64,000 nucleotides of DNA from Anolis carolinensis (lineage: Eukaryota), in assembly GCF_035594765.1 (NCBI RefSeq), contig NC_085845.1:188806897-188870896 (forward strand), written 5' to 3'. The notes beneath the pieces are model-generated. The model searched no databases. It was not told the DNA's origin and saw nothing but the letters and a program-made list of their open reading frames with translations. The position numbers were made by a program, and so were the translations under genes. Below are positions 410 through 39,508 of this stretch, piece by piece (the stretch's first letter is position 1; the number at the start of each line of letters is the position of its first letter).

Positions 410-728
410 CTGCATTTCTATACTGCTTTTCTCACCCCTGGGGGGACTCAAAGCAGTTTACAACATAATAAATGGCAAAATTCAATGCCTTACAAATATA
501 TAAAAATATGGAACACTTCTATGAAATATGAATATGAAATATGGAACACTTCTGGTCCCAAACATTTCGGAAAAAGGGAATTCAATTTGTACATAAATTG
601 TGTGATGGCATCGAGGCTTTTGATTTCTGTTAAGGCTGATCTCCAAGTGAGCATGGACAGGCTTGCAGCCTTAAAGTTGTTCCTGAGTCTAAAATAAGAT
701 TATACTTAATGTTTTTTTTCTATTGCAG

Positions 729-874
729 GATTAAAGTGCCCTTTGATGTTGATGAACAGAAAGCAAGTGTTCCTTACCAGATGCTTCTTCTCTTGGAGCA
801 GATGCAGCAGAGCAAACAGAAGTCTGTACATCCCATGAATCTCGTCCAGTGCCTCTCAAAACACGATGTGAAAT
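729..874 (+). CDS. USP18: USP18 exon (IKVPFDVDEQKASVPYQMLLLLEQMQ...HDVK)
   Basis: cag|G at 728/729 and T|gtaagc at 874; 146 bp. Confidence 0.9.
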
Positions 875-3800: not shown

Positions 3801-6800
3801 GTGGAAATTTTCAGATGGCCTAAAATGATACCTGCATTTGCTATGGCCTTAACATTACAGTAGAGTCTCACTTATCCAACATTCGCTTATCCCATGTTCT
3901 GGATTATCCAACACATTTTTGTAGTCAATGTTTTCAATAAATCGTGATATTTTGGTGCTAAATTCGTAAATACAGTAATTACTACGTAGCATTACTGCAT
4001 ATTGAACTACTTTATCTGTCAAATTTGTTGTATAACATGATGTTTTGGTGCTTAATTTGTAAAATCATAACGTAATTTGATGTTTAATAGGCTTCTCCTT
4101 AATCTCTCCTTATTATCCAACATATTCGCCTATCCAACGTTCTGCCGGCCCGTTTATGTTGGATAAGTGAGACTCTACTGTATTTGCATGCAGAAGATTG
4201 TTAATCTCAGGGGAATAAATTAGTATCTCATACATCTTTCAGTCTGTCAATCCCAATTAGATGTCCTCAAGGTGCCTGGCAGAAACAGCCTCTTCACAAG
4301 GATACCATTTGAGCTCTTGGGTTGCCACATTGTTGTTCTATGACCTCTAATGGTGGAAGATACTTTGAGATAGAGGAGCAAAACTGGATTGCTATTAGGT
4401 GAATCCACCCATTACTTGGCATATAGAATCAGTTTTGTCAAGGACTATGCCTGTGTTGGGAATCTGAATTATGTAGTGGTTTGAGTATTGGGCTACAACT
4501 CTGTGAGATTGGAGTTTACATCCCAAATTGGTCATGGAGATCTCTTGTCTGATGTTATGCAAATTAGAGAAAGTGATGACAACCCCCCTCTGAACAAATC
4601 TTTCCTAGAAAACCCAAACCCTACGCTAGGGTTACCAAGTGTCAAAATTGGCTTGAAGATATATAACAGCACCAAATGTATATATGCATTGATCTCATCC
4701 TTTCCCTGCATCAGACTGTGGAGGTGTGTGTGTGTGTGGGGGGGGGGGGGGGGTGGTGGTGTTGTAATTGAACCTATTTCTGGATGGTTTCCTTTCCGCA
4801 GTCTATATTAACAGACAACATATTTCTAGTGTTTTAGGTAGGAGTCTTTTCTAATCCTTCCAAATTATGCCTGGGGTTGAACCTGGGACTTCCTGCATGA
4901 AAAGCACACCTTCTGTCTATGCGATTCAAAGCCTAATCTACTTTTACTTCTCACCTTGGCACTTAAATTGGAGTCACCAGTAAATCTGCTTGCTTTTAGC
5001 TGTGTGCAGTGTTACCCTTCAAGAAGCTACATTTACTGAGAGAAGGTTTGGAAAGAAGGTGGAAGCAGGAGAACTTCTACTGCTTTGGAATCTCTTGAAT
5101 ATGATTTTCATGCTTCTTGGCATGGGGTCGGACTGGATGGCCCACAAGGCCTCTTCCAACTCTATGATTATAAGTTTTGCATCTGGGTTGTGCTTCCACT
5201 GAAAGTGTCTATGTATGTCTTTTTCCAGGATGATGGGCTGTATGATCTTTTTGCTGTTGTTGCACATTCGGGATCGGCTGACTTTGGTCATTATTGTGCC
5301 TATGTTTGGAGCCTCACAGAACACAAATGGTATTGTTTCAATGATTCCAGTGTCTGTCAGGTAAGCAAACTAGAACTTACAAAGTAAGAAATCTTTCCTC
5401 AATTTCCCTGAACATCTTGAAAAGAGTAGGACCTGAGATCTAAAAGATGTTGTAGCACACTGGGCATCCTTCAATGGATTTGGGGCCATTCTCCCCCAAA
5501 GCCATTTGAAATCTAAGGTAGCTATAGTGATGGGACAGTGTTTATCTTTTTTCAACAATAAACGCATGAAGGATTCAACAACATTCATGTAGATTCCATG
5601 TCACAGTGTTATAATTTAAATGTGCAAGTGCAAGGATTTTTCTAATACAAAATTATTCCTTGTAACATATCCAACTAAATTGTTATTTACTGAACATACC
5701 CAAATCCTTTAACACAAGGAAGTATTCTCTCTGTCACATGATCAACATTTAGTTGAAACAGAGACTTCCTTTCTAAATACAGTAGAGTCTCACTTATCCA
5801 AGACTCGCTTATCCAAGCTTCTGGATTATCCAAGGCATTTTTGTAGTCAATGTTTTCAATATATCATGATATTTTGGTGCTAAATTTGTAAATACAGTAA
5901 TTACAACATAACATTAATGCATATTGAACTACTTTTTCTGTTAAATTTGTTATATAACATGATGTTTTGGTGCTTAATTTATAAAATCATAACCTAATTT
6001 GATGTTGAATAGGCTTTTCCTTAATCCCTCCTTATTATCCAAGATATTCGCTTATCCAAAGTTCTGCTGGCCCGTTTAGCTTGGATAAGTGAAACTCTAC
6101 TGTAGCTGGTTTTGGTTCCCAGTTCACATAATGTGATTCTTTCACCCTTATATCTTTTAGAGGATTGACAGTTCTTTGCCACGTATCTGTTGTTCAAATC
6201 TGTTCAGATTTTCTAGAATTTGCCATATTGGTCACCTCAAGATTCCAAGGCCCAATCCAACTTGATAACGAGATCAATGTCCATGTGCCCCTTAAGTATT
6301 TCTTAAACCTTGGACTATTAGGAAAAATAGCTGAAGAATGAGTTACAAATTCATATTAATATTTTATTCTTGTTAACATGGATACACTGATTAACATGCT
6401 GTCCTCAATGACGTAAGGTGCAGTCATATTTAAGAGTAGACTCACTGAAGCCATTGGGAATTAGTTATGATTAGCTGAAATCTCGTTGCTTTTATTTGTC
6501 TTTTCTAAATATGGTCTACTCTAAGTAAATCAGAAGGTGCCTCCGGTGGCGCAATGGGTTAAACCTTTGTGCCGACAGGACTGCTGACTTGAAGGTTGGG
6601 TTGCTGAGCTGAAGGTTGCTGGTTCGAACCTGGGGAGAATGCAGATGAGTTCCCTCTGTCAGCTCCAGCTCCCCATGTGGGGGACATGAGAGAAGCCTCC
6701 TACAAGGATGGTAAAACATCAAACATCCGGGTGTCTTTTGGGCAATGTGCTTGCAAACTGCCAATTCTCTCACACCAGAAGCATCTTGCAGTTTCTTAAG

Positions 6801-7799
6801 TCGCTCCTGACATGAAAAAAAGTAAATCTTTTCTGTAAATGGTGTATTGTCAACACTAAGTATGGTTGGGACTTTGAATAAATCTCATAAGCATGTTTTT
6901 TGTGCTTTACACTATATAGGTATTCTGGGATGATATCAAATGTACCTATGGAAGAGCATCTCTCCGTTGGTAAGTGGAAAGGATTCCTAATTTTTCTCCT
7001 AATCGTACAAGAAAGGCCAGAGTGATAGTGTTAGTGATGTTAACATTTTCAAACTGCAATTGTAGCAAGATAAATAGTAAACATAATTCAGTATGCCCCC
7101 CTTTTCCCATGTGCAAGATTGGTGCCATTTTAAAATACAACAAAATACAGCTTGTCGAGGCATTTTTGAGTTCCTCCAATGTGATATTCTTGGGCTGGAT
7201 TTCAATAGGTTTCACTGTTATCCATGATTTTACATATTCACATCCACTCCAGGAACATAGCCCTTGCAGATATAGGGATAGGTCTGTATAACAGTTATGC
7301 AAGAGACTGAAAGATAAACTCCATGCTATGCTGAATATTCAGTTAAAGATCCTTATATTCTTTATATGTGTGTAATTGTGCACCAATGAGAAGATTTAAA
7401 CTAGGGTTGGAATTCTGTGGATCTCCAGATGTTATCAGACTGCAGCTCCTGGCAGGCTTGCAAATCCCATCCTGAGTTTAAAGCCTCCTTGCACTTGGAG
7501 CAGAAGAAGGAAAATACCACTTCTATCCATGATCTGCACTTGTACTCAGTATTCTCAATCCATATTGGGGTTTTGCATGTTTACTTGGATTTCAGAGAAA
7601 ATGTGTCGAGGAAAATCAAATTAATGGTTTGCTTGGTTTCTTTTGTGCCAATGCATTCTGAGGACTTGATGCACCTTGATCAGTAAAATACATCTTTGGT
7701 GTTTTTTCTTCCCTCTTTTCTCTTTCTTGTAGGGGAGAAACAGCCTATCTCTTGGTTTACATGAAAAAGAATTGCAAGGCGCTCTGGTCAGATTTATGA
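729..7799 (+). CDS. USP18: Ubiquitin-like carboxyl-terminal hydrolase 18 (USP18), 3' eight coding exons; 5' part outside the window
   Basis: Exons 729-874, 1114-1193, 1818-1964, 2443-2538, 3187-3357, 5229-5360, 6920-6969, 7733-7799 all have AG/GT ends and join in frame. Peptides are USP18-typical: SVPYQMLLLLEQMQ, LWNLIKDQIT, LPQTLTLHLKRF, His box HSGSADFGHYCAY...WYCFNDS, WDDIKCTYG, ETAYLLVY. TGA ends at 7799. Confidence 0.93.
1114..1193 (+). CDS. USP18: USP18 exon (LFVLYDAAELFLILWNLIKDQITSTDL)
   Basis: tag| and |gtaagt; 80 bp, phase fits the previous exon. Confidence 0.9.
1818..1964 (+). CDS. USP18: USP18 exon (AERLTHQYTIRLKEHLTCQECSCE...FKKL)
   Basis: aag| and |gtaggt; 147 bp; first CxxC of the zinc finger. 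Confidence 0.9.
2443..2538 (+). CDS. USP18: USP18 exon (EDALHYFFASEQMMEESAFCCEQCNRKAPRLR)
   Basis: tag| and |gtaatt; 96 bp; second CxxC. Confidence 0.88.
3187..3357 (+). CDS. USP18: USP18 exon (GVKVTYLPQTLTLHLKRF...DIQEK)
   Basis: cag| and |gtggga; 171 bp; LHLKRF box. Confidence 0.9.
3858..4180. mobile_element. Tc1/mariner (Tigger-like) MITE
   Basis: TIR CAGTAGAGTCTCACTTATCCAAC and TA target duplication. Confidence 0.85.
5229..5360 (+). CDS. USP18: USP18 His-box exon (DDGLYDLFAVVAHSGSADFGHYCAYV...WYCFNDSSVCQ)
   Basis: cag| and |gtaagc; 132 bp; catalytic His and Asn present. Confidence 0.93.
5780..6102. mobile_element. Tigger-like MITE, same family
   Basis: Same TIRs, TA TSD. Confidence 0.85.
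6535..6820 (+). mobile_element. tRNA-derived SINE (Anolis SINE2-like, A tail)
   Basis: A box TGGCGCAATGG, B box GGTTCGAACC, ends GCTCCTGACATG(A)n. Relatives at 9410-9681 (-), 37847-37929 (partial), 41022-41272 (-), 43858-44138 (+). Confidence 0.8.
6920..6969 (+). CDS. USP18: USP18 exon (VFWDDIKCTYGRASLR)
   Basis: tag| and |gtaagt; 50 bp. Confidence 0.88.
7733..7799 (+). CDS. USP18: USP18 last coding exon (GETAYLLVYMKKNCKALWSDL*)
   Basis: Long pyrimidine tract then tag|; AYLLVY terminal USP motif; TGA. Confidence 0.9.
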
Positions 7800-12680: not shown

Positions 12681-12850
12681 GAACGGAGATTTCTGGATTC
12701 TTTAATGATCAGGAATGGTTTGCAGTGTGATCTTTTATGGGGGAATCTACAGTAGGGAACGTCTCAGATACTTCAGTTTGCTAAGCAGACTTAATTTCAC
12801 CCCATCAGAACCAGTAATAGAGCCAAGACTTAAATCTTTACGAAGCTGTC

Positions 12851-12856
12851 TTTATT
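12851..12856 (-). terminator. Candidate polyadenylation signal of the perilipin gene
   Basis: AATAAA on minus about 500 bp after the stop codon. Confidence 0.4.
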
Positions 12857-13348
12857 TGAACACACTTTCAACACTTTCCCTGAAAAAAAACATTCTGTCC
12901 TTATGCCACTTCCCAGCAGCCCATAAACCCAAAATAGTATCACTAGTTCTTGATAAGGCTAGTCGCTTCCATCAGGATAGTACTACACTTTGGGTCATAT
13001 CAGGACTCCATTTTAAAATGTGTGTTTTGGAAAGTCTTACAATTTAGAGTTTCCCCAGGCAGGTTCTCTCCACACACAAACACCCTTTCCACCCACCACT
13101 CTGTAATGAAGTGTTCCCAGTAATATAACTAGTTATTGACAAAATAATTCATTACCATCACTTCCACATGAACAGGTCATAGCAGGATTTGGCAATTTTA
13201 AAATATGTTGGGTTTGGGAGGAGGGATGATTACTATTTTGAAGTGATGTCTGGGCAGTCTGCCACCCACAATTTACATCAAGTGAATTTGTCTCCCGTTA
13301 TAACCATAATTCAATACAGTCCTGCTCTCTGCAGCAACAGCAATATTA

Positions 13349-13711
13349 CTACAACAGATCTTGCCTCACTCCTTGGTCTCCCTCAGAAGGTGGCTTGGGT
13401 GACCGAGTGAAAGGTCCCACAAGCCAGGAGAGGGGTGTTTGGTGGCTGATGTATTCCCGCAGCTCTTCCATATATTCTTGAGCTTTTTGCACTGTCTGAT
13501 AGCTTTGGGCCAAGACGACGTTGGAGAGTTCCTGGAAGGAGCCAGTGTTTGATAAGGAAGCTTGGAGTTCTTTGGTGTTTTCATGGATTTGATGCATCTT
13601 GTCCTGCAAGCTGGAAGGAAATCCTTGTATGCTAGACGTCAGTGTCTGGAAAGTGGTCTGCAGCTGCTGGATCATGCTCCGGAACATTGAGATGGCACGG
13701 AGGTCTACCTC
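13349..13711 (-). CDS. Perilipin last coding exon ([11 protein letters not shown]...[10 protein letters not shown]...DLL*)
   Basis: 363 bp; tag| acceptor; four-helix-bundle region; TAG stop. Confidence 0.92.
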   Translation of the reverse strand, partial: EVDLRAISMFRSMIQQLQTTFQTLTSSIQGFPSSLQDKMHQIHENTKELQASLSNTGSFQELSNVVLAQSYQTVQKAQEYMEELREYISHQTPLSWLVGPFTRSPKPPSEGDQGVRQDLL

Positions 13712-16700
13712 CTAAAACACACAGATCATTACACAGCATCAATAAGAGCAGCTCAAAGTACTCCTGTTAACTTCTATTAATACAAAACATGACTGTAGCA
13801 CCTTTCCCTCTTGTGTTGCTCAGTATTACAACAGTTGAAAGTGAAAATGACTTATTCCTTAGCCCTGGCAACCATAGCTCTTCTCCAACTATCCCTCTCC
13901 TTCTGCATTCATGCAGCAAACAAAGCCCCCTTCTTTACATTTTCCTCAACTACTGGGCCAAAGCAGCATATTCAGTAGCGAAGGATTATGGGAATTGTAG
14001 TCCAAAAACATGTACAACAAAACTAGCTAGCGTATGATCCCTAAAAGCTGTTCTTGCATCCCTTGATCCTTCTTTTTTCCTGTAACACTAACCTTCTCTC
14101 CAGCTAAAAGAAAGGGAGAAACTCCTTTCTTGGGAGCTTCCTGGAAAGACAATTTCACCTTTTAAATGGAGCATGTTCCCTCTATACTGACTTCTTGTTT
14201 TCCCCCAATTTGGTTCTCCCCATGGTCACTTTCAGCCATCTATGTTATAATCAGAATTGCAAAGACAGAAAATTGACCATTAAAAACTCTTGGCTTACCA
14301 CGCAGACGCATGCTTCAGCCTTATCATCTGAGGTACCCTTGCTCCATTCTAGCACCATCTGGCGAAGCTTCTCCTGGTGCTCATTGAGCTTCTGTCCAGC
14401 TTCATTCTTCATATATTCAAGCTAAAAGGTAAAAGCAAAGGCAAGGATCAAAAATCATGCCATTAGTGGAACTCCACTTCCATCCTGATATGCCACCAGC
14501 TCATTTTCAATGGTCAGTGACATAAATGAGATCACAAACATTCGATTCTCCGGGGATTCCAAGTTACCGGAGGGACAGATGTTTTCTAACAACACTTCAA
14601 AGAATCCGCTAGCCAGTGATTGTGACTTAATTTCCTCCATCTAATTCCCAATGTTCAGGTCTGGAATGTTGCTAACAATTTTATAGAGCTGGAAATATTT
14701 CTTGTAAAATCAACAAATGTAATAAAGTATTCTTTAGCCTGCATACAAATTATCTACTACCGCAAATTTATTTTTATAATAATAATAATAAACTTTATTT
14801 TATTTTTAAGACCTTCAAGAAGGAACAAAGATTGTAAAGCCCTCAAATTACTTTGCTTTATTTGCTTTCAGCCTTTCAAAGCAGTTCAATGATATCTGTA
14901 AGAAGTTGGATATCAGTTGAAAACACAACATGCTCAGAATAAATATTGATCAAAAGTCATGAAACTATCATTTTTTCTTGCTTTAAGGGGCTTAGGATTT
15001 AAGTTTCAAGGAGTTACCCTTTTAGACTACGGCTCCTAGAATTTCTCAACCAACCTGACCATATTAGCTGCAGGACTAGAAGATCTGTGGTTCAAAAACA
15101 ATTTTAGATGTTTTAAACTCTGGCTAAAACTTATATTTGAAAAATAGAGAAATGGTCCATCTTAACCTCCAAAGTATTTGGAGGGTGGAAGCAAAGTTCT
15201 TACCAGGCGGATAGTTTGCTCAATCTGGGCCAGAGAGCTCTGGATCCTTTGCCTGGTTTTTTTCAGCTTGTCTACAGAATGGCGGTAGGCCCGGTTGCGG
15301 AATTTGGCTGAGAGGGAGCCCAAGCGCACTAGATACTCTTCTCGTTCATTGTGCTGCATTGCCACAAGATCACCATTCCTTACAGCTCTTGCAAGCTCAG
15401 CTAAGAGAGAACCACAGAATGTTATAAGTCAACACAGGCCAGTCTTGATATCTCATGCATCCTCAATAACATCTGCAAGAAAAGAAGCTTTCATTCCTTA
15501 TTGACTGTCTAAAGGACAGTTGTTTGAAAAATCAAGGGCCTTTGGGCACTCTTCCAGATAGATTGTTCTATTTCAATGGGCAAAGTTTGGGACACATGTA
15601 ACCTCTCCAGGGCCCAGGAGGAGGCCACTGTCAAGGGACATAGAAGGGAACACAAAGTGATGCATACATGTCCTTTCTTTTCACTCTCAGATTTTAGAAA
15701 TGTTATTTTTCATGAAAAGTCCAAGAATCCCCCAAGCATTCTGGCTACTGAAGTTGGATTAGGGATTCTGGTAACTACAGACCTGAATTATTTTCCCAAG
15801 GTTTTGTCACTCCAAAGTACAATACTTCGTAATAGCAGGAATGTACCCTTAACATATACTTTGAATACCCATGCTATTTTAGAAACTGTTACTTAGCTGC
15901 AAGACTAGAAGATTCTGGATGTTTAGGCGACATACCCAATTCTTCTTCCGTCATGGGAAGGTAGTCATCGATCAGTTCTTCAGCACTGTCAAGTATTGCT
16001 TCAGCCCCACTCACAGCGATCTGGCCCACTCTGGATTCCACCACAGTGGACACACTGTGGCTGATAGCAGACCTGGTTGCATCCATGCCAGTCTGCACAG
16101 CATCTTTGGTCATGTCTACAACCCCAGATAGCTTGTTGGCAATAGCCTCTTTGGCATTGGACACCATCTCCTTTGTACTTGACGCAATCTACAAGGCAAC
16201 AGAGATATTAACTTTGGAGTTATAGGATTCACCATCAATGAAGTCTTTAAAAAATACTGTCATGCTGATAGCCCTCTTTTCCATTTCATGTTGACATTAG
16301 TGCCTGGGTTAGATTAGGAAGGCTGGTCAAAGGACACAGCAGCTATCTTGTCCCTGCTCCTCTTCACCCAGCCATCATTTATATCCACGTTACCCCTAAA
16401 CAGAGACTCAAGACAATTTCCAAACATTAGCATCAAACAGATGTAGCGTTGACCCAGGACAGTTAAAGCAATATCAAACAGCTTTAATTTTACAGCACAT
16501 GAACCCTAAGAAAGCCTTTTGAGGGGTTTCTATTAGACAGGCGAGGATGATAAGGCCAAGAAGAGGCTTCCCAAGGACCTCAAAGCTCAGGCTTGCATGG
16601 GAGGAGGCAGCCCTTCAGATAACCTAAGCCATATCTCCACCACCCATTCGGTATGCCCAGAAACAGAAGAGTAATCAGCACAGATATTATAACAAGGAAT

Positions 16701-19700
16701 GTGTGTGCTTCAAATATTCAGCCAAACATTCTCTCTCCTTTTCTCCCTAACCAAGAGGAAACTATGCATCTTACTACGGATTAGATCGACATACCTCATC
16801 TGCTGTCAAATGTAGAATTGGTAGCTTCTCCTCCAGAGTATCCAGACCTCTAGAGGCATACTCATTTGCTGTTGCAACTGTGGAGCACAGATATGGTATT
16901 TTAATAATAATAATACTTTATTTTTCAATCCCACCACCATCACCCTGAAGGGATGTGGGGCGGCTATCATGGGGCGATGCCCAAAACAAAACAGAATAAA
17001 GCAATTACAACGAATATCAAAACAAAAACAGTAATAATATAAATCAAATAAAATAAACAATTTAAACATTTTAAAAATACAATAAAACACATAAAATCAG
17101 AACAAATGAGTAATAATACAGCATCAGCCACTGGAGATGAAAGGGGTCAGGCATATAAAACACAATATCAAAAGCTTTAATAAAGTGCATAAACAAGTGT
17201 CAGAGAGTCAACTGGGATAATATGGGATAAGGTAAGGTAGGAAGGGATTGAAGTGCTAAGAAGTAACCACTGTCTAGTGTCAGTATGAGAAATCCAATGT
17301 ATTTGTAGAGCTTGGAAAATTTTATTTGAGCTACAACTCAAGAGTCTTCAAAGCACCTGTGACACTGGGGAATATAGTAATAAAACTAACTGTCCCAAAT
17401 TTTTGTATATTTCTTAATAAAGAATAAGGGTACAGAAGCACTATATATCTGAATACTATTTATCTGGAAAAGTGAGTCAGAGTTATAACCATTGTGTCTT
17501 GCCTGTGGCTTTCCCTAGGCATTGACTTTTTCATTGTAGGATACTAGACTAGACAGGACTTTGGTCTGATCCAACAGGGATCTTGGGTCCCTAGACCTTT
17601 GTTTTGATAAGGCTTAGTTTCCAAGTTTATTTATGCTGCATTATAGCAGCTAGTAGATTGTATCCTGGTCCTATAGGATTCAAGGCTGTTTCAATTTAGT
17701 AGTAGAGTTTAAACATTTCAACTTGTTAAAGCTCAGAATAAATACACTCAACATTACAAAGTCTAAGAAGGTGATAATCCGGTCTTATTATTAACTAAGA
17801 AAAAACAGCAGTGCTTTCAATGTTTGCCACAGAGGTTACTAAAAAGGGACCAGACTGGACAACTGAAGCAAAAAGGTTGAAGCATCCAGGAATGGAGCAC
17901 AAGCCTCAAGGTTGGGTGTTTGTGCACTTGTGAGAAATTAGTGTCCCAATGCCTCATACCGCTATCTGTTTGGGGAGCAGAGAAGAGCACAAACTACACC
18001 ATTATGACTACTGTTTATTCCCATGCAAGACTAGCATGCATGTTCCATCTCTGTAACCACATAAAACTGTAAAGCTGAGTGAAAACATTTGGCTTACTTA
18101 CTCTGGGGTTCTAGCTTATTCAGGATAGGCTGAGCTGTATTGACTGCCACCTCCGTTATGGTCTTCACTCCTTTCTCAGCGACATCCAAGATGGATTTCA
18201 CATAGGGGTGGCTATCCTTGGTAGAGCTGTAGGCTGTCGCAGCCATGTCATATGTGGAGCTGACCAAAGGCATGTTGGCCACTCTTCTCAAGACATTCTA
18301 AAAGTAGAGAAGGACTGGTTATAGTATGTTAGAAGAGTCCATACTCTAACATGGGGAAGTGTAACAGTTCAGAGTCTCTTGCTAAACCATGGTCTCCTGC
18401 CTTATATTTTTTTTCAGTGCCATAGCCAGATGGTGTAATTTGAGTGTTGATTAGGATTCAGAAAACCGGGTTTCAAATCCCCACTCAGCATGGAAAGTTG
18501 GAAACCAACTGGGGACTTGGGCAAGTCACATTCTCTCAGTATTAGAGGAAGGCAGAGACAAAACATCTCAAAACAAACCTTGCAAAGAAAACTTCATGAT
18601 ATAGAAACCCCTAGGTGAATCTAAGTCAGAAATGACCCAAAGGCACACAACAACAGAAATGGTTGGGAGGTTTGCAGTGTTCCCCTCAAAATCCAAAATT
18701 GTTCCCAAACCACATTTCCTCCTAAAGATGTACCAACAGTTAAAGGAGAGCAGATTCAAACAATCGTGCACAACAGCACTGTTGTAGCTGCCTACTGGAA
18801 CCTAAAAAATTATGATAGCAATACTTACTACCTGGTTCTCATAAACTGACATAGGATTTTGTCATTCCAGTTGTACAAAAATTGTTTTAAAAGTATTTCA
18901 ATCTATTTTCTGGGTAAACTGTTTTACCGACCAAATCTGATAATCTGATGCCAAACCAAATAATCTACAACACATTTTATGTTCTTAAAGTAAAAATTAC
19001 TGTAGGGTGCCAATAGTCCCTTTATCAAAATTTCTTTCTTCCAAAGAAAATTAAAAACCCCAAACAAGCAGTCTGGTTTATTCAGCAAAGCTCCAACATA
19101 TTTTATCTTGCTAGTAACCTCCAGAGCAGGAGATCAGTTAAGAGTCGGGATGGTGACCAAGGATTCCTATAATAATAATTTTATTTATACCCTGCCTTTT
19201 CTCTACACAAGGAGACCCAACATGGCTACCTTTGCTATTGACTCTCATGTCACTATAGGCAAGCTACGCTTTGTATCTTTGGTCCTCTTATCTGCCATAT
19301 AGGATATTATACAGCCCTTATGGAGATTACGTTATCATGGGTGCATGCAGTGATACCCCACCTCGAAACTGGAAAAACTTAAAGTTTTTCTGCCTCTATC
19401 TTCATCCTTCGCAAGTAAACAACATTTTAAGTTTGCTTTTCATTCTGTTTCAGGATTAGCCTTCATTTGTCCAACTCTTCGCCTCTATCCACTTACGGAC
19501 ATCAGTGGCCTTGAGTCTTTTTATTTAACTGTCTAATTAATTATGGAGATTGAGTTTACCTAACCACCACCAACGAAAGATCCGAGAACTATTTGCCATT
19601 CTCCATTTCAGCAGGAAGGTGAAAGTGTAGCAACACAGAAGGAACAGCAGGACTAGAAGAATTATAAAATTTGGATCAGTTTATTTTTATTACAGGAGCC

Positions 19701-20720
19701 AGATTGCCTGCACTGAATACTAGGAGATGTCTTGTGTAAGAAAGAGAAACGGGAAGAAAAAGCTCTCAGATTAGCCAAGAGGGGAAAGACCTTAAGTAAC
19801 TTGCTCTGGATTTGCTGAATCTAGCCACACTCAGACCTGCATCTTTAGCTTGGCCTATAGTGGACTAAGGAGCCCCACGTGGCGCAGTGGATTAAACCAC
19901 TGAGGTACTGAACTCAGTGGTTGGTGGTTCGAATCTAAGGAGCGGAGTGAGCTCCCACTGTTAGCCCCAGCTTCCGCCAACCTAGCAGTTTCAAAACATG
20001 CTAATGTGAGTATATCAATAGGAACCGCTCCAGTGGGAAGGTAATGGCACTCCATGCAGTCATGCTGGCCACATGACCTAAGAGGTGTCTACGGACAATG
20101 CCGGCTTTTTGGCTTAGAAATGGAGATGAGCACCAACACCCAGAGTCAGACACGACTAGACTTAATGTCAGGGGAAAACTCTTTACTTTTTATCTAAAGT
20201 GGACTGGGATTGTGGAGCACAGGCCTCCATCTATGGGTTATCAATGACAGAGCATGGAAAACAGTTTTGTACTATAAATCCCAGAACACCCAGCCATTGT
20301 TTGTGCAGGCATGTGCAAGGCATCTCGAAATCTTTCCATCAAATTGCTAAAGTCTAACATATCACCACAAAGGAAAGTCCAGCCATTTTTTTTGCATATC
20401 AACCTCCTTTAGAGAACTCTTGTTAAATTACCCCTCAAATAACAGTTGTCACCATTAAAAGGTAGATAAAAGCTTCTTTCTGTCAGCACATCAAGCCAAA
20501 CTAGTGGCTGAATCCTTGACCCTTAAACTTTGCTCAGGCATAAGAGAGTTCAACGTGCTGACTAAAGTAAGATCGCGTGCTGTTCATACCCTTCTTTCAA
20601 TACTCATTGACTCACCTCCTGTCCAGCTTCCTTCAATTCCTGTCCAGCTTCTTGCACCTCCTGTTCAACTTTCTCAACCTCATCCTGGGAGGACACATTC
20701 ACTTGCTCATTGGAAGCCAT
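13349..20720 (-). CDS. Perilipin family lipid-droplet protein (PLIN2/PLIN3-like), complete, 439 aa, 7 coding exons
   Basis: Minus-strand exons 20720-20616, 18297-18102, 16877-16795, 16188-15936, 15400-15204, 14421-14299, 13711-13349 (105+196+83+253+197+123+363 = 1320 nt), all GT-AG and in frame. PAT domain ([14 protein letters not shown]...[19 protein letters not shown]), 11-mer repeat region, [18 protein letters not shown] and the C-terminal [10 protein letters not shown] motif. Confidence 0.93.
14299..14421 (-). CDS. Perilipin exon ([28 protein letters not shown]...CVCV)
   Basis: 123 bp; tag| and |gtaagc. Confidence 0.88.
15204..15400 (-). CDS. Perilipin exon (AELARAV...[17 protein letters not shown]...TIRL)
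   Basis: 197 bp; tag| and |gtaaga. Confidence 0.92.
15936..16188 (-). CDS. Perilipin 11-mer-repeat exon ([14 protein letters not shown]...YLPMTEEEL)
   Basis: 253 bp; tag| and |gtatgt. Confidence 0.92.
16795..16877 (-). CDS. Perilipin exon ([28 protein letters not shown])
   Basis: 83 bp; cag| and |gtatgt. Confidence 0.93.
18102..18297 (-). CDS. Perilipin PAT exon ([16 protein letters not shown]...KLEPQ)
   Basis: 196 bp; tag| and |gtaagt. Confidence 0.93.
19869..20190 (+). mobile_element. Sauria SINE
   Basis: tRNA head and RTE/BovB-like tail GAGTCAGACACGACT...GGGGAAAA(CTTTA)n. Confidence 0.8.
20616..20720 (-). CDS. Perilipin first coding exon ([35 protein letters not shown])
   Basis: Acceptor tag| at 20733/20732, ATG at 20720, donor GAG|gtgagt; phase 0 joins the next exon. 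Confidence 0.8.
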
Positions 20721-21416
20721 TTGGCTTTGTAACTAGCAAAAAGACAGGGCTGGAAGACAAAAAGTCAGCAATAGTTTGTTCATCACATATAAGCTGCAGT
20801 GCCAAAGCCTGTATAGGTCCAAGATGTTAGCGGCTCTAGCTTCACTGAATAGCACTGCTTTGCAATTAAGACTTTTTACTATCTCTAAGATTACTAAAGC
20901 ATGTAATAGGTAGTAGGAGTTGCCTCAGTAGAATTAGCATAGCATAGTTTGAAAATAGGACAATGACCCTGGAAGCTAGGATTCAAATCTCCACTGGATC
21001 ATGGAAACCCACTGGATGACGCTAAGTCACTCTCTCTCAGCCTCAGCGGGAGGCAAAGGTACCCCACTCCCCAACAAATCATGCCAAGCCAATCTTGTGA
21101 TAGGCTCAGCTAAAACCTGCTGTCATGCAACAGTAACATGCAGCTGTCTCTATCACTGCAATATTAAAGCAAGAGAATAGGGCGCATTTAATACTGCTGG
21201 TGTTTATAGCTATTCCAATGTCACTGTCTTTCTCTGCATTGCATTCAGGCTTTCTAAAGCTTCCCTCTCCACTTTTCTTACTGGGCAGATTAAATATACA
21301 ATACTAGTTGGAAAGGGCTAGGTCCATGTAAGACTAAAATTGCTATTCAAAGCATACCAAACTTCAAGAGTTCTGCCATAGTACATATACTATAGAAAAG
21401 GAAATCGCACCAAATA

Positions 21417-21739
21417 CAGTAGAGTCTCACTTATCCGAAACTCGCTTATCCAACGTTCTGGATTATCCAACGTATCTTTGTAGTCAATGTTTTCAATACA
21501 CCATGATATTTTGGTGCTAAATTCGTAAATACAGTAATTACTACATAGCATTACTGCGTATTGAACTACTTTTTCTGTCAAATTAGTTGTATAACATGAT
21601 GTTTTGGTGCTTTATTTGTAAAATCATAACCTAATTTGATGTTTAATAGGCTTTTCCTTAATCCCTCCTTATTATCCAACATATTCGCTTATCCAACATT
21701 CTGCCGGCCTGTTTATGTTGGATAAGTGAGACTCTACTG
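21417..21739. mobile_element. Tigger-like MITE, same family
   Basis: Same TIRs, TA TSD. Confidence 0.85.
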
Positions 21740-21860
21740 TAGTTCCAAAGGGTACTTCATCATGTCTTTCTTCAGAAGGAAGTTAAACAATGTGATGAAA
21801 ATTTAGATTTGAGAACTCTTTGAGATGTGAACGTTAAGTTTGTGTTCAGAAAAGGTATTA

Positions 21861-22164
21861 CAGTAGAGTCTCACTTATCCAACATAAACGGGCCGGCAGA
21901 ATGTTGGATAAGCGAATATGTTGGATAATAAGGAGGGATTAAGGAAAAGCCTATTAAACATCAAAATAGGTTATGATTTTACAAATTAAGCACCAAAACA
22001 TCATGTTATACAACAAATTTGACAGAAAAATTCATTACACATTAATACTATGTAGTAATTACTTTATTTACGAATTTAGCACCAAAATATCACAATGCAT
22101 TGAAAACATTGGCTACAAAAATGCATTGGATAATCCAGAACATTGGATAAGTGAGACTCTACTG
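21861..22164. mobile_element. Tigger-like MITE, inverted relative to the 21417 copy
   Basis: Same TIRs, TA TSD, opposite orientation. Confidence 0.85.
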
Positions 22165-23436
22165 TATATGTGGTTGTCAAGGAAGGGAAGGGGGAAAAAA
22201 GAAGAGGGAAAGGAAAAAAATAAAAAGAAATACGTAATGCTATTTGGACAAGCTGGAATATTACAAAATTAGAAATAGGTGATTCCTGGAAAGGTTAAAT
22301 ATGTTGGAATAATGTTAATGAAACATTTGATTATGATTTAAAACATCTTTCAATTTATGCAAATTGGGTTTTTTATAGTTATCCACACTTGTGTATATAA
22401 AACAGTCAGGAAGCTCAAATCACAAGAACATATTTTATTGCCTGTTCCCATTCTTATGGGGTTATTTTTTTATTAATGTGATATCATTATGTGTTTAGAC
22501 ATATTCTGAAATTTTCTTGAGCATGAAGATATATTCCCTGCCTTGCAAGGAGTCTCTTTAAAAAATTACATTAGGATTTTTGCATATGAAATGGGGGGGG
22601 GGGGGGGGGGGGAGAGAATTAGCCGGTGGCACTATTGCCAGATAGAAACAGTTTTTCCTAAAACATAGTAACCAATAATTCTAGTTAGGAATAGTTTGCA
22701 TGGATTTTGCTTTGAAAATGTCTTGAATTTGAGTGAATGGTAAAGTATGTTATACTTATTCTGCACAAGTTGCCATTTGAATACAGATCTAGACACGTTT
22801 CATTATTTTTGAATGTATATTTTCTGATTGTATATTAGATTGTGTCAAATAAAATATTTTTTTTAAAAAAAGAATATACCAAACCTCAGTCAGCATGAAG
22901 CCTAATAGGCAGAGAAGTTCAATGGATCTCAGCAGCCTTACTTTTTGAATATAAGAGAGTACAGTGTCAAGCTACAAATAACGGTGAGCTAAAAAATGTT
23001 TGTAGCAGGCATGTGTTTATTACGAGGTCACATTTTTACTTATTCTTCCTTAATACCTATTGATGTTTCTGCTGAACAGATAGAAGACTAGGATAGCTTC
23101 AGTCCTGTTCTTGTTTATTGCTCAAGATAAAAAAAAGGAAAACAAAGAGCTATGTAAAGTCTGTTGCTCTCTACATACATTTAGAAATCTGGACTACAAC
23201 TTCCAGAGCCTCCAAGCCAGCATAGTCTGACCCATTCCAAAAACTGTAGTCAAAGAAAATGACTTTTTTTTCATAAGCAGTACCCATACAGAGACTAGCA
23301 ACAAAACAGCAAAAGCCACATTAAGCCATGTAAGAAGATGGAATAGAAAAGCAAACTCTTCAAATATTATACAAAATGATTAGTAATCTGTGTATCACAC
23401 ACACCACACTACCAGCACATCTACAAGTCCACTTAC

Positions 23437-23560
23437 CTGGAGGTGATAAATCACAAGAAACAATTGAAGACAAGGCCTACTCTCACCTTTATATACTAAC
23501 AATGATGATGTCATGGAGGTAGGCCAAAGAGATCAAGATTGACATTTGGAGAACCAATGA
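23437..23560 (-). promoter_or_regulatory. Putative perilipin core promoter and short non-coding exon 1
   Basis: TATATAAAG on minus at 23495-23487; consensus donor CAG|GTAAGT at 23437/23436 about 50 bp downstream; CRE-like TGATGTCA at 23506-23513; CCAAT at 23554-23558. Confidence 0.6.
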
Positions 23561-23874
23561 ATAGAGCCTCATTTGTTCGTCAATCAGTTAGGGACAAGAG
23601 ACAGATGGAGTCAATGAGGGTCAGATAATGATCCTGATAAACAATGACTGGAGATATGAAACCCCTCAGCTGTATTTAAGGTATTTTTATTGGCCCACTT
23701 AGCTGCAAATCTTTGGTTTAGATTTAAAGCACAATAGAATGCCATTAAAGACATAGTTGCCGATACTCCTGTTCTTGTGGGCTTTCAAGTTGTTATGGTG
23801 ACCTTGTCACAAGATGTGTGTGTAGAGAGCCAGTATAGTGTTTAGTGTTGCTTCCAGTTTGGCTATAGAAGCAA

Positions 23875-24075
23875 GTTTATAGTGGTTTAAGTACTGGACC
23901 ACAATTCTGGAGACACTGATTCAAGTCCATGTTCAGCCATGGAAACCCATCGTGTGGCTTTGGAGGAGTCACTCAGTCTCAATCTCAGAAGAAGGCCATG
24001 GCAAACCTTCCCTTGTCCCCCCCCCCCCCCCCCCGCTTGTGATAGAGTCACCAAGACCTGAAGGCACACAACACA
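23875..24075 (+). mobile_element. Old MIR/CORE-like SINE (relatives at about 11740, 18425, 20935 and reversed at about 10830 and 52960)
   Basis: Degenerate tRNA head and the CCATGGAAACCCA...AGTCAC...CTCAG core. Confidence 0.55.
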
Positions 24076-25124
24076 CCATTTTGGCAGATGCTTCATTAAA
24101 AAACACCAGAGGATGATCCAGGAGATAATTAATCCAAAACATGTGTTTTCAGGATACTTCACTCTATTACAACTCACTGAAAATCCTGTGATGAGTTTCT
24201 TCAGGATTGCTGTAAGTCAGAAACAACTTGCAGACACACAACAACAAATAAATAATTTAAATAAAATGAGAAGATGTGGGGAATGGAGTCAAATCCTATT
24301 TTCTCCCATTTGGAGGGGATATCACTTTTCTGTCGTTAACCCTTTTAGGACAGGCAGTATATCAACAGTGAAGTTAATATGCTGATACAATGTTAGGACA
24401 ATTCTACTTGTTGAGTTACACTTGCTGTGGCTTAAAGACACCAGTACCCTGCCAAAAGAAAATGTAGTATCCTGTTCTCATGACATGAAAATAGTATGTT
24501 CCAGGTCTCCATTTACACTACACAATTATAGCAGTAAAATCCCACTTTAACTGACTTGTCTGTATCCAATGGAATCCTAGGATTTGTAGTTTGGTGAGAC
24601 ATACAAACACTTTGGCAGAGTACTCTAAATTGTTGTTTTTGTGTGCCTTCAAGGTGTTTCTGATGAATGACGACCCTAAAGCAACCCCATCACAGGGTTT
24701 TCTGGCGCTGAGTGTGTGCTTTGCCTTGGATCACACAATGGACTTTCATGGCCAAGCAAAGATTTCAGCCCTGGTCTCTAGAGTTGTCTTCCAACACTCA
24801 AACTGGTATAAACTGAAGAATTCCATGGGATGCCACATAATCATAATGCAATAACTGTGTAATGTGAAAGGGTCCCTGGGAGATTCTGTCCCTCTCCCCT
24901 ACAAGTCACCCGACATTCAGAATCCCTTGCCATCTTAAAGTAAAGGTTCAGGAGTCCTGTTTGAGTCTTGTGAATCATGGTGTTTCAACATATTGCTATG
25001 ATAGCTTTGGGGTTAATGTGAACTAAGGATGGAAATCCACTGCTACCCATAAGGCTGAATTCAGAGATATTTTGGCCAGCTTCATTCAAGTGGAGCTGAA
25101 AGCAGAAGTTTGGGACTCAAATTA

Positions 25125-25912
25125 CCAATTTAAAGAGGCCCTAAAGAACTCGTAAAAGGCACCAAATAGGCAAAACAAGCCCTGGACAACCTGAAGGAGG
25201 CTCTTAAAAACTTGTAAAACACAACAAAAGGGCAAAACGGGCCCTGGACAACCCTAAAGAGGCCATAAAAACGTGTAAAAGGCACCAAATGGGTCCTGCA
25301 CAACTGGAAGGAGGCCCTAAACAGTTTGTAAAAGGCACCAAATGAGCAAAACAGGCCCTGAACAACTCTAAAGAGACCCTAAATAACTTGTAAAAGGCAC
25401 AAAAAAGGCAAAACAGGCCCCGGTGAACCCAAAAGAGGCCTAAACAACTTGTAAAAGGCACAATATGGGTAAAACAGGCCCTGGACAGCCATGAAGGGGC
25501 CCCAAACAACTTGTAAAAGGCGCCAAATGGGAACAGTGAGCCTTGGAACACCCTAAAGAGGCCCAAAACAAATTGTTAAAGGCACCAAATGGGAAAAGGG
25601 GCCCTAGAACACCCTAAAGAGGCCCGAAACAACTTGTAAAAGGCACCAAATGGGCAAAACGGTCACTGGGCCACGCAAAGGGAGCCCTAAACAACTTGCA
25701 AAGGAACACAAGCGGGGAAAAAAGGGTCCTGGGCCACCCTAAGGGAGCCCTAATCAACTTGCAAAGGAGCCCAATTGGACAAAACGGGCCCTGGACCACC
25801 CTCAGACAGCCCTAAACAACTTGCAAATGAACACAAGTGAGCAAAATGGGCCCTGGGCCACCCTAAAGGGGCCCTAGACAACTTGCAAAGGAGCCCAATT
25901 GGGCAAAACGGA
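25125..25912. repeat. Minisatellite, unit about 60-62 bp, about 13 copies
   Basis: Unit CCCTAAACAACTTGTAAAAGGCACCAAATGGGCAAAACAGGCCCTGGACAACCCTAAAGAGG is visible in successive lines. Confidence 0.9.
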
Positions 25913-27116
25913 ATGGTGAGAGCTGAAGTCCAAAACACCTGGAGGACCAATGCCTGAGAATCACCACTCTAAGGCAATGTTTCTTTAAAACCTAATACAA
26001 TAACAATTGGTAGTTGGTACTATGGATACCAGAGAGCACACACACACAAACAAACAACTAAACGAGTTTGAGGGTGAATCAAAACTGAACTCTCACTAGA
26101 ATTAAAAAACTATGGGTTATAAGCCTCGGACACCCAGAGTGCAACCAGGATCCATTTGGGTGTCAGCTGATGCTGGAAACATAATCAGAAAAACACTAGA
26201 TCTCCTCATTCACAATTTTCTATTGGTCTTGATTGAATGTCATTTCAATGTTTAGGGGGCCCTCTACTGTCAGCATTTGGAATTATACCTTCTCATTTAG
26301 AACAGCTTCTACAGATTGAATCCAGCAAAAAAGGCTGAAATATCTAATCTCTGTATAATGATTTGGATACATTTTTACCTACTGAAAAGCTTTTTCCTAG
26401 AAACTTCCACACACCTCTCCCGTAGAACATTTTTACTGTGAAAAGTGAACTTCTGTAGTCAGCCCTCCATATCCATAGATTTTGTATCAATGGATTCTCT
26501 ATCCACTGAGTCAGTGATCCATGGCTTGAAAATATTCCAGTCAATTAATGAACCAAGCAAATCTTGACTTTGCCATTTTATTTAAGGGATACCATTTTAT
26601 TATGTCAATGTATATCACAGAACTTGAGTATCCACTGATTTAGATATCCATAGATATCCTGGAATCAAACCACAATGGACACCAAGGGCTCATTGTATAA
26701 AGGCAAGTATAAGCAAGGACACCTATGAAAATAATACAGAAAATATAGTAATTTCTGATTTGGTTGGCAGAAATTATTAGCGAGGAAAGCAGAAACACCA
26801 CATCAAACAGAAAGGCTGTTACAGGGTGTAAAAAAGTCAGAAAATAGTTGGTTATCTAATATTTTTGATGTCTCTGCGTTCTCACTCCCAGGGAACAATA
26901 TTCAATATTCAAGAAATGTTCTAATTGAGTTCCATAATTTGGCTGACTTGGCTAATGTGAAAGTTTGTGTGTATGTTTTGGGGCGATGGTGTTGGGCCAG
27001 ATCTCAGATATTAGACCTGCTGTATATCACCCAGAAAATACATGGAATGTGGGAGCATACTGAATTAGCTTGGAAATATTAGTTTTCAAAAACAAACAGT
27101 CCAAGTTCTTCTAGAT

Positions 27117-27232: not shown

Positions 27233-30067
27233 TTCTAGATGAAGACAGGAGTAACCGTTTTTTGGAGGGAACACAAAGTATTTTCTAAAAGTTCAGCATA
27301 CAGTGACATCTTACAACATTCAGTGCATGTGCCTATAAAGATTAGTTTAGTTCTCACAGTAAAAGTTACAACATCATCAAAGGAGAAAAACAAAGGACGA
27401 TGGTTCAGTCATCCGGTCTTTAGTTACAATGCTGGGTGATTTGATTTTGTCCTTGAGAAGTTATCTTTTATACATAAATGTGGGTGAGAACTGGGTGAAG
27501 CTGTTGACTTGCTAATATGGACCTCAGCATATTCCTTTCGTCTTATAGTTTATCAAAATTGAGGGGAGAGAGATACTTTGGTTCTAAAGCAAAATGGTCT
27601 TTTAAACTCTATATCCCATAGACACAAGTTAATCTCTTTTTTACCTCCTAAAGCTGAATTAATTGGGCAATATTTATGGTAGTTTTTAAACAGTGTTAGG
27701 GAGTCTACAGGGGTCAACCATATACCATGCAGCTGTGAATAAGTCTACATAGGGACCACCAAATGCAGCATTGCCCAGACATAAACCAAGGAACATGAAA
27801 GGCACTGCAGACTAATTCAATCAGAGAATAATAATAATAATAAAATAAAACTTTATTTATACCCCGCCACCATCTCCCCAACGGGGACTCAGGGCGGCTT
27901 ACATGGGGCCATGCCCAAAGCAATACAATATAAACAGCATATAAAAACAACACATCACAACACAATAAGCGATACAATAAATAATAATATCCAATTACAG
28001 TACAAGAGAAGTCAGCCATAGGAGAGCACTTGATGAACCAACCTGGACACAGCATATTATATGAGAACACAGAAATGCTGGACAACTTCGACAACACAGT
28101 GTTAGGGAAGTCTATTCTCCTGAGACCCTTTTATAATTTTTTTTCTGTGTCAGGAGTGATGTGAGAAACAGTTTCCTTTATAGTACAATTTATATTATTT
28201 GGCAGACAGTAAAACATCAGGGTCAGCCCTATAAGGTAATGGGTCACTGGCAGGAAATGGTGAACACACATGGAAGGGGCAAAACTACCTACTTACCTAC
28301 ACATTATCTATTACAAGTGTGTCCCTTGAGTTTATACAAGTATGGCTTTGAAGATGGATATTTTTTGAGGGTACATCTGCACTGAAGCATTAATGCGGCT
28401 TGATACCACGTTAATTGCCATGGCTTAGTGCTATGGAATCCTGTCAAACTACATTCATTCTATAGTGTCGTTGCACCCAAAGTCACCCTGTTTTATACAT
28501 AGCACACTTTATTTATATTTTATATAGTTTTTTCCTCAGTCTTTGAGACATGCAAAACCAAACTGCTCATGACGGAGTCTCTGGAACATATTCTCCAAAC
28601 ATTCTTGTCAACATTTAGAGAAGGCATGAGTATATGTTGTTAGTACTAAATTGTTTATTATGGATTTAAAATTAATTTACATTCTCTTCCTATGTTTATG
28701 TTGGTAGCAGAATACAGGGGGAAAAGCCTCTGTGCAAAAAAAAAATCCATCAAGAATGGCATCTCTTTCAGTTATTTGCCTGCTTGTAATTAGTAACAAA
28801 GAAAGAATTATTTTTTATATCTGCTGTCTCCTTTTTTAATGTCACAAACCCAGTGTGGGTAGATGAGGTCAGAATTTGTATAAAATATGGGGGGGGGGGG
28901 GGGCTCTGCACTGTAGAATTAGTGCCGTTTGGTACCACTTCAACTACCATGGTGCTGTAGCATAATGGGAATTGTTGCTGTGGCAATTAAAGTGGTGTCA
29001 AATTGTATTCGTTTTATAGTATCCTGTCTCACTTTTCTTTAGTTTCTAAATTTTGCAGATGTGTTCTCAACATTTCCAATATTCTGGACTCAGTTCTTGC
29101 ATTGATTGTTCCAAACAAACTTGAAGGCTGAGCCCCCTCCACTCCGTCAGACTTGTCCTGTCCACATACCAGATATGTTAACCAAAGGAATCATGCTATG
29201 GTTTTTCATCTACAAGTATGCAGCAATCCCAGGACAAAGAAGCACTGTTATGTCATTTTACCAGCAAAGCAAAGTCCATTCTTTTGGCATGCATAATAAT
29301 AAAGGACAAGAATGCATCTAATGTTCTTTACTCTGATAGCTGCAGGCTTAACAGATGGCATTTTTAAAGTTGACTCCCCATTCTGACAACCATGAAATGG
29401 ATAGTGAGCAATCCCTTCATAAGTTGGTGAAGAATGCATTGTGACACCACTTGAGCTGCCATGGCTCAATGCTATGGAATCACAGGAATTGTAATTTTAC
29501 AAGGTCTTCTCTATGTCAAAGAATGTTGGTGCTTCACCAAACCACAACTCCCAGGATTCCATAGCATTGAACCATGGCAGTTCCAGTGATTCCTCCAGAG
29601 GAACAGTGGACATGATCTTCATTGCACGACAGATCCAAGAAAAATGCCGGGAACAAAATCAACCTCTGTACATGACATTCATTGACCTTGCAAAGGCATT
29701 CGACACAGTGAATCGCAGTGCTCTCTGGACCATCCTCCAAAAAATCGGGTGCCCTGACAAATTTGTGAACGTCCTGTGACTCCTCCACGATGACATGATG
29801 ACAACAGTCTTGGACAGCAACGGCTCCCAAAGTGACCCATTTAAGGTGGAATCAGGTGTCAAGCAGGGATGTGTTATTGCCCCCACCTTATTTTCCATCT
29901 TCATTGCTATGATATTTCATCTTGTTGATGGGGAGCTTCCGAACTGTGTGGAAATCATCTATTCCACAGATGGTAAGCTATTTAACCTCAGCAGACTGAA
30001 AGCCAAAACCAAGGTCACAACAACATCTATTATAGAACTCCAATATGCCTATGATAATATAGTCTGT

Positions 30068-30478
30068 TGTCGAAGGCTTTCATGGCCGGGATCACAGGGT
30101 TGTTGTATGTCTTTCGAGCTGTGTGGCCATGTTCCAGAAGTATTCTCTCCTTTGCGTTCCAGGCGGTTGTAAATACGATGAGCCTGTGGTGTTTTGAAGG
30201 TCCTTTTGGCTGCAAGAAATTGTGGGATGGTATCTGTGTCTCTGCAGCGTAGAAGGAAGGTCAGGGAGCACAGCAGATGTGCTTTCCTGGTCCTTAGTTT
30301 TTCCAATCTCCGTGTGTCTTGGAACAATTTCTCCCCGTAGAGATGTTCAATGTGTTGTCGAAGGCTTTCATGGCCGGGATCACAGTGTTGTTGTATGTCT
30401 TTCGGGCTGTGTGGCCATGTTCCAGAAGTATTCTCTCCTGACGTTTCGCCCACATCTATGGCAGGCATCCTCAGAGGT
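30068..30478 (-). mobile_element. Penelope-like element: partial tandem pseudo-LTR with ORF N-terminus, inserted in the RTE
   Basis: About 85-bp direct repeat (30068-30151 and 30356-30439); frame ...DPGHESLRQHIEHLYGE...LTFLLRCRD...IPQFL; the RTE frame resumes at 30479 (EEDLQATLNTF). Confidence 0.8.
30435..30478 (-). ncRNA. Minimal type I hammerhead ribozyme motif of the Penelope pseudo-LTR
   Basis: Minus strand reads A-CCU-CUGAGGA-U-GCCUGC-cauagau-GUGGGC-GAAA-C-GUC^AGG: core CUGANGA and GAAA, 6-bp stem II, CCU/AGG stem I, palindromic ACGU stem III, GUC cleavage triplet. Confidence 0.75.
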
Positions 30479-35114: not shown

Positions 35115-35157
35115 TTAATATTCAGCATTGAAAGGATAATCCGGGTGGCTGCTGCAC
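35115..35157 (-). CDS. AKR1B10: AKR1B exon 10 ([13 protein letters not shown])
   Basis: 43 bp; tag| acceptor; TAA. Confidence 0.92.
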
Positions 35158-37439: not shown

Positions 37440-37487
<48 letters not shown>

Positions 37488-37719
37488 TTATTATGACACA
37501 GCAAACAAGATAGACATGCTGGATTTTGTATCACAAAATCAGAAGTCGAACACTTCCCAAGTGTCTAGGACTGTGTGATGTATTTTCGGATGATGTGTGC
37601 AGATCCCAGTAGGGTGGCCTTTTGCAGTTGGCAGATTGTGATTTTGTCAATGTCTATTGTTTCCAAATGCTGGCTGAGATCTTTTAGAACGGCACCCAAT
37701 GTACCGATCACCAGCGGCA

Positions 37720-37766
<47 letters not shown>

Positions 37767-39477: not shown

Positions 39478-39508
<31 letters not shown>

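Follow-up and report, generated by a model that had tools for sequence, protein, structure and literature searches.

The stretch of DNA analysed here (the window) comprises 64,000 nucleotides of the Anolis carolinensis genome (NCBI RefSeq assembly GCF_035594765.1, contig NC_085845.1, positions 188,806,897 to 188,870,896) and carries on its minus strand an intact perilipin gene with seven coding exons, running from 20720 to 13349 and encoding 439 residues with no internal stop. The gene is flanked by the 3′ part of USP18, a convergent neighbour on the plus strand (640–7796; best PDB matches USP18, E = 4e-14), and, upstream and on the same minus strand as the perilipin, by an AKR1B-family gene resembling AKR1B10 (35115–51520), one exon of which has rodent AKR1B and AKR1B10 as its best matches. 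Both neighbours bear out the placement given in a preliminary description of this DNA. The published picture is that tetrapods have PLIN1, 2, 3 and 5, with the addition of PLIN4 in mammals. The proteins closest to the window gene are already annotated ‘perilipin-3-like’, and their clade represents an old paralog of PLIN3 in reptiles, which adds a member to a known family. The account that we consider very probable is that the window gene is a spliced reptile paralog of the PLIN3 lineage, likely an intron-keeping DNA copy from the PLIN3 cluster, and is predicted to serve as an exchangeable lipid-droplet coat.

All six introns of the gene are GT-AG, and all six are joined exactly in spliced contigs, with four runs of four studies joining 6/6, 6/6, 5/6 and 1/6 of them. 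RNA is the tool’s guess for these source runs, none of which is recorded as such; 19 of the 24 listed runs hold the stretch. The first coding exon (20616–20749), in which the ATG at 20720 opens 105 coding nucleotides (20720–20616), is defined by the gene model and by contig ends at 20749 and 20754. It has two possible acceptors, which give an exon start at 20749 or 20732; the N-terminus that it encodes is acidic, and its sequence includes an imperfect 21-nt tandem repeat. The six exons that follow are each seen in the gene model and in contigs: two PAT-domain exons of 196 nt (18102–18297, also a profile match) and 83 nt (16795–16877); a 253-nt exon of 11-mer amphipathic repeats (15936–16188); a 197-nt exon that opens the alpha/beta subdomain and the four-helix bundle (15204–15400, also a PDB match); a 123-nt exon of the four-helix bundle (14299–14421); and the last coding exon (13349–13711, 363 nt with the stop), which encodes bundle helices, the cleft-rim serines 345/346 and the motif P-L-x-WLVGPF at residues 412–420. 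A 3′ untranslated region (12835–13348) contains AATAAA at about 12856, and contigs end between 12835 and 12896. The gene is thus the intact, intron-bearing perilipin that had been reported, and six spliced introns set it apart from a retrocopy.

The exon sizes had been read as a mixture of PLIN2-like and PLIN3-like values, but they are family-wide: among the six gene models derived from this genome, which span both PLIN2 and PLIN3 types, every one has the 196-nt exon and five have the 83-nt exon, the sixth having been reset to 83 after the script chose an upstream acceptor. The repeat exon differs in length: compared with the 286-nt exon of this genome’s PLIN2 and of one PLIN3-cluster gene, it lacks 33 nt, or one 11-mer. 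The intron phases are those of the PLIN3-cluster genes and, because these phases were kept, the duplication from that cluster would have taken place at the DNA level.

Upstream of the coding exons, a TATA-like box, TATATAAA, lies at 23495–23488 on the minus strand (23488..23495) as a candidate promoter. It is followed by a candidate short non-coding first exon (23437–23465, minus strand), whose 5′ end is set from TATA spacing and whose GTAAGT donor has its GT at 23436. A weak hint for this exon comes from one contig, the last five letters of which are common to the end of this exon and to the acceptor at 20750. By our own estimate, such an 8-mer is expected about once per 15 kb of AT-rich DNA. 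The box and the donor are in the sequence, but none of the listed contigs reaches the upstream exon, so that the ‘likely TATA promoter’ is plausible and unproven. A scan of 20734–26500 for PPAR-type direct-repeat-1 (DR1) sites, based on their consensus, gave two weak sites versus six expected by shuffling.

The protein has the anatomy of PLIN3 (also known as TIP47 or M6PRBP1). The window exons match the Perilipin family (PF03036) above its cut-off, and the A. sagrei ortholog scores 517 bits over positions 2–400 of the 403-position profile. The sole PDB sequence match of that ortholog is the C-terminus of mouse PLIN3 (1SZI, E = 3e-50), which is also the sole fold match of its structure model at E ≤ 0.001 (E = 1e-7). 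Like PLIN3, the window gene encodes a PAT domain, 11-mer repeats and a four-helix bundle with the P(L/V)xWLVGPF motif, and has the same intron phases, although it lies on a different chromosome, in a USP18/AKR1B block and not in a UHRF-type region. In the 22-residue windows of a hydrophobic-moment analysis, the PAT domain reaches 0.36 versus 0.18 when shuffled, and repeat residues 126–204 reach 0.32 versus 0.17, a value attained by one in 1000 shuffles. PMC13382019 describes a cleft in the PLIN3 bundle that is lined by P(L/V)xWLVGPF, F236, W416 and serines 343/346/347 and binds phosphatidylethanolamine. Mapped by motif spacing, the corresponding residues of the window protein are L236, T342, S345, S346, Q348 and W415 together with the full motif, so that Leu236 stands in place of human Phe236. 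A ten-residue stretch of the cleft motif is exact in 25 of 27 orthologs, and the rim pair is SS in 22 of them.

A Pfam search of the genome returned 40 matches from 48 candidates, corresponding to ten perilipin loci (C2, C5, C9, C13 and C16 are contig labels of this genome, and the window gene is on C5). Trees identify PLIN2 at C2:233.09 Mb, a perilipin grouping with PLIN1 at C13:13.14 Mb, and a PLIN3-type gene at C2:206.41 Mb that groups with monitor lizard and snake proteins. The Pfam search places four further PLIN3-type genes, two recovered only in part, at C9:37.65–37.72 Mb, a PLIN3-type gene at C9:36.86 Mb (also a gene model) whose repeat exon measures 511 nt and whose tail is long, and a second C5 perilipin at 189.19 Mb. 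The perilipin at C9:36.86 Mb has an SRA-domain gene 30 kb away, and another such gene lies 7.5 Mb from PLIN2; following human gene order, we take these to be UHRF1 and UHRF2, respectively, and hence C9 to be the ancestral PLIN3 region. The counterpart of human 19p13, which in the human order holds UHRF1 and PLIN4/5, is C9:36.8–37.7 Mb, with five perilipin loci other than the window gene. The window gene is not a positional ortholog of mammalian PLIN3, and, again by human gene order, its USP18/AKR1B block on C5 is not known to hold a perilipin in mammals. The preliminary claim of an extra paralog at a locus matching no mammalian PLIN accordingly holds, with PLIN2 and PLIN3-type genes at loci of their own.

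Orthologs of the window gene occur across several groups of reptiles. A search with the last exon gave, as best matches, ‘perilipin-3-like’ proteins of A. sagrei, other lizards and many turtles, and a turtle query added a tuatara protein (68%); the names of these orthologs are automatic annotations. The A. sagrei ortholog is 92% identical to the window protein and also has 439 residues. The turtle query was sampled as its best 120 of 1629 matches, and 229 rows were kept by length and score. The FastTree phylogeny of these rows recovers an ortholog clade of 28 (support 1.0), made up of the window protein, 10 lizard, one tuatara and 16 turtle rows, with 23 more turtle rows, a second tuatara and one cobra forming the next clade out. 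Birds, crocodilians, mammals, amphibians and fish contribute no row to the ortholog clade of this tree, and none of its monotreme, marsupial or placental rows provides a mammalian member; the gene was likely lost in birds and crocodilians, as judged from this sequence sampling. The window protein is 43–49% identical to this genome’s PLIN2 and its two closest PLIN3-cluster genes versus 56–57% identical to the tuatara and turtle orthologs, and it is about 49% identical to marsupial PLIN3. BLAST scores of the window protein fall from 461 bits for the turtle ortholog through 421–425 for turtle PLIN3-cluster proteins, 393 for wombat PLIN3 and 323–341 for PLIN2 to 115–122 for PLIN1. Many turtle members lie on contigs of 335–380 Mb, a size that fits the largest chromosome. 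Turtles also have another, larger group of related perilipin-3-like genes, with several copies per species, on contigs of the same large size.

Two maximum-likelihood trees were built with IQ-TREE, one from 59 of 96 selected rows with plin6 of fish included, the other from 35 rows after plin6, PLIN1, PLIN5 and other long branches had been dropped. In the 59-row tree, the window protein belongs to a 14-row reptile clade (100/99), plin6 forms a clade of its own (100/100), and the backbone is open. In the 35-row tree, successively nested clades place the window protein within PLIN3 (100/98), tetrapod PLIN3 (100/99), amniotes (94/93) and a reptile clade (100/98). PLIN2 is a separate clade (100/97), and the window protein falls outside it in both trees; PLIN2 (adipophilin) shares its domain layout and exon phases with the window gene and differs in having this clade and its own ortholog on C2. 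Approximately unbiased (AU) tests on the 35-row tree rejected a position outside jawed-vertebrate PLIN3 (p = 0.005) and, by a narrow margin, one outside tetrapod PLIN3 (p = 0.038). The former is the test that matters, since an ortholog of plin6 would have to branch off outside the whole of jawed-vertebrate PLIN3. On these sequence comparisons, the window gene nests within tetrapod PLIN3, in a PLIN3-lineage clade shared with other reptiles.

Several observations weigh against this account or limit its reach. When the reptile clade and plin6 were forced together in the 59-row tree, an AU-type constraint test did not reject the union (p = 0.48); we read this tolerance as the result of the long plin6 branch, which aligns over the N-terminal half only and floats. 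The absence from birds and crocodilians rests on the sample described above (the best 120 of 1629 matches; 229 rows), and turtle synteny on the listed contig sizes, not on turtle gene order. The structure model was made for the A. sagrei ortholog and is of moderate quality, with a mean predicted local distance difference test (pLDDT) score of 67, rising to about 90 in most of the bundle, and a predicted template modelling (pTM) score of 0.46. Taken over the whole 77-residue repeat segment, the hydrophobic moment does not exceed that of shuffled sequences (0.09 versus 0.09). Lastly, the amniote fork of the 35-row tree is open, leaving an origin either before or after the mammal split.

This open fork bears on a variant that dates the copy to the stem amniote rather than the reptile stem, with later losses in mammals, birds and crocodilians. 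Mammalian PLIN3 takes no supported place outside all reptile groups, and the grouping of PLIN5 with one reptile cluster gene (95/90, 59-row tree) suggests that some duplications may predate the mammal split. The variant needs one extra loss, however, and the monotreme, marsupial and placental rows include no mammalian member. We regard it as a real possibility, though one with less than even chances.

With either date, in early amniotes or early reptiles, a copy of the PLIN3 lineage, introns included, would have moved from the ancestral PLIN3 cluster to another chromosome and duplicated again locally. By analogy with mammalian PLIN3, its PAT domain and 11-mer helices would bind the monolayers of nascent droplets, the cleft of the four-helix bundle would read a phosphatidylethanolamine-rich monolayer and anchor the coat, and the coat may then stabilize small droplets without direct switching by protein kinase A (PKA). 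The window protein likely coats ordinary lipid droplets, and our best guess for the cargo is a tissue-specialized neutral-lipid or wax droplet. The window gene defines an old reptile clade under the ‘perilipin-3-like’ label, in a lizard with about ten perilipin loci. This bears on how orthologs are named in transcriptomes of reptile fat, skin and yolk, and it offers candidates for droplet specialization. No paper on a reptile PLIN3-like paralog, or naming the clade, was found in a literature search that had most subscription journals outside its coverage; the figure supplements of PMC5342826 may show such rows.

The neighbourhood on C5 records further duplication. The order of genes is two alpha-tubulins, USP18, the window gene, AKR1B, a decayed perilipin last exon, AKR1B, a BPGM-like gene, caldesmon, AKR1B, a second perilipin and a RERG-like gene; the names TUBA8, BPGM and RERG are tentative ones, given to these neighbours on the basis of their Pfam families. 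The two tandem alpha-tubulin genes lie just upstream of USP18 (C5:188771956–188792011), and the BPGM–caldesmon block separates two of the three AKR1B genes (C5:188.84–189.17 Mb) from the third. The decayed last exon (52404–52796, minus strand) lies between two AKR1B genes, about 0.9 kb upstream of an AKR1B start codon, and contains stops and frameshifts. It was found by tblastn (E = 2e-8), and its alignment to the real last exon (13718–13305) shows 58% identity over 433 columns with a score of 218, versus a maximum of 71.5 in 200 shuffles. A search for remnants of other perilipin exons near it stayed at noise level (57 versus 56.5 in a control stretch). The decayed exon is a trace of a tandem duplication of perilipin and AKR1B. 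On one strand, perilipin copies alternate with AKR1B copies, a pattern suggesting that a two-gene unit was duplicated locally once the perilipin had arrived on C5. AKR1B–BPGM–CALD1 is an old gene block that mammals have kept and in which they are not known to have a perilipin.

The second C5 perilipin (C5:189183513–189188556, minus strand) lies about 370 kb from the window gene. Its PAT and repeat exons are normal, whereas its C-terminus is remodelled and more hydrophobic and lacks the cleft motif, and one bundle exon finds no match. Exon by exon, its N-terminal half is 68–74% identical to a ‘perilipin-3-like’ protein of Hemicordylus, and the last exon is also conserved; similarity to plin6 ends with the PAT domain. 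It falls inside the reptile clade in two trees, one of them the 59-row tree, and outside it in two others, including the 229-row tree. As a candidate for a new function, it is better placed than the window gene.

The adjacency of perilipin and AKR1B had been taken as a hint of a carotenoid/retinoid-handling pair, a suggestion that is unsupported, since nothing beyond adjacency speaks for the pairing and nothing beyond distribution and adjacency for a pigment role by convergence. In one form of the idea, which we hold to be improbable, non-avian reptiles rebuilt a specialized droplet toolkit from PLIN3, and either the USP18/AKR1B clade or the second C5 copy coats carotenoid/retinoid droplets of the skin, replacing a lost plin6 by convergence. 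More specifically, the window gene could be a PLIN3-derived copy that convergently coats pigment droplets in reptile xanthophores, possibly co-regulated with the adjoining AKR1B retinaldehyde reductase. The clade occurs in lizards, tuatara and turtles, animals with skin chromatophores, and in none of the birds or mammals sampled. The alternation of perilipin with AKR1B on a single strand also speaks for this role, and perilipins can coat both droplet types (PMC5342826). The window protein, however, lacks PKA sites for pigment trafficking, insertion and local duplication explain the adjacency, the mammalian block is not known to include a perilipin, and we found no paper linking a perilipin to lizard colour. 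We judge this specific role quite improbable.

The preliminary description had also proposed that the gene is possibly the squamate counterpart of fish plin6. Taken in full, this reading would make it the reptile ortholog of plin6, the fourth gene to result from the vertebrate genome duplications, and a coat of carotenoid droplets. Both genes encode a PAT domain and are extra perilipins absent from mammals, the window gene lies away from the PLIN1, 2 and 3 loci, and their union was tolerated when long plin6 branches were in the tree. A lineage as old as plin6 or the genome duplications is nevertheless rejected by the AU test on the tree without those branches, and the well-supported plin6 clade excludes the window protein. 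According to PMC5342826, plin6 of ray-finned fish stems from the vertebrate genome duplications, has FLAD1 and SYT11 as neighbours in the human-1q region, and is defined partly by conserved C-terminal PKA sites. At least two C-terminal R-[RK]-x-[ST] (PKA) sites are present in 71 of 73 plin6-type proteins versus 0 of 27 orthologs of the window gene, one of which has a single site and among which the window protein has none, while W-x-x-GP-F shows the opposite pattern (0/73 versus 26/27). Gar plin6 matches only positions 7–256 of the Perilipin profile, without the C-terminal bundle covered by the A. sagrei ortholog, and plin6 resembles the window protein over the N-terminal half only, with 31–37% similarity and 90–148 bits. 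DAP3, which we take as a marker of the human-1q plin6 region, is on C16, where the Pfam search found no perilipin match; profile searches for FLAD1 (PF01507) and LENEP (PF15221) located neither gene in this genome and were uninformative on that region. Queried with a lungfish plin6-like protein, the genome gave nine matches at E ≤ 1, eight in PAT exons of known loci and the ninth weak and stop-ridden on C3 (E = 0.22), so that no separate plin6 locus was found. Tree position, domain extent, PKA sites and chromosome location together speak against plin6 orthology, which we reject as very unlikely, and the window gene does not overturn the plin6 story. Another reading takes the gene for the only PLIN2 or PLIN3 copy, moved by translocation, or for a duplicate or retrocopy that is recent and specific to anoles; some turtle orthologs are labelled plain ‘perilipin-3’ in source databases, but the ten loci, the 59-row tree, the turtle and tuatara orthologs with their higher identities and the six introns leave it a negligible chance.

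Other rows of the trees merit a remark. Two long branches, a lungfish protein (P0207, uncharacterized LOC122808904) and a horn shark ‘perilipin-2-like’ protein (P0224), group with ray-finned plin6 (100/100, 59-row tree) and carry C-terminal PKA-type sites, and the match of P0207 to the family profile is confined to its N-terminal part. If they are plin6 orthologs, plin6 extends beyond ray-finned fish and has survived in a lobe-finned fish. Two further shark proteins annotated as perilipin-2-like (P0174 and P0208) group with PLIN1, not PLIN2, and their annotation may be wrong. Within the window itself, broken reverse-transcriptase-like frames at about 29500–31400 are probably a decayed fragment of a long interspersed nuclear element (LINE).

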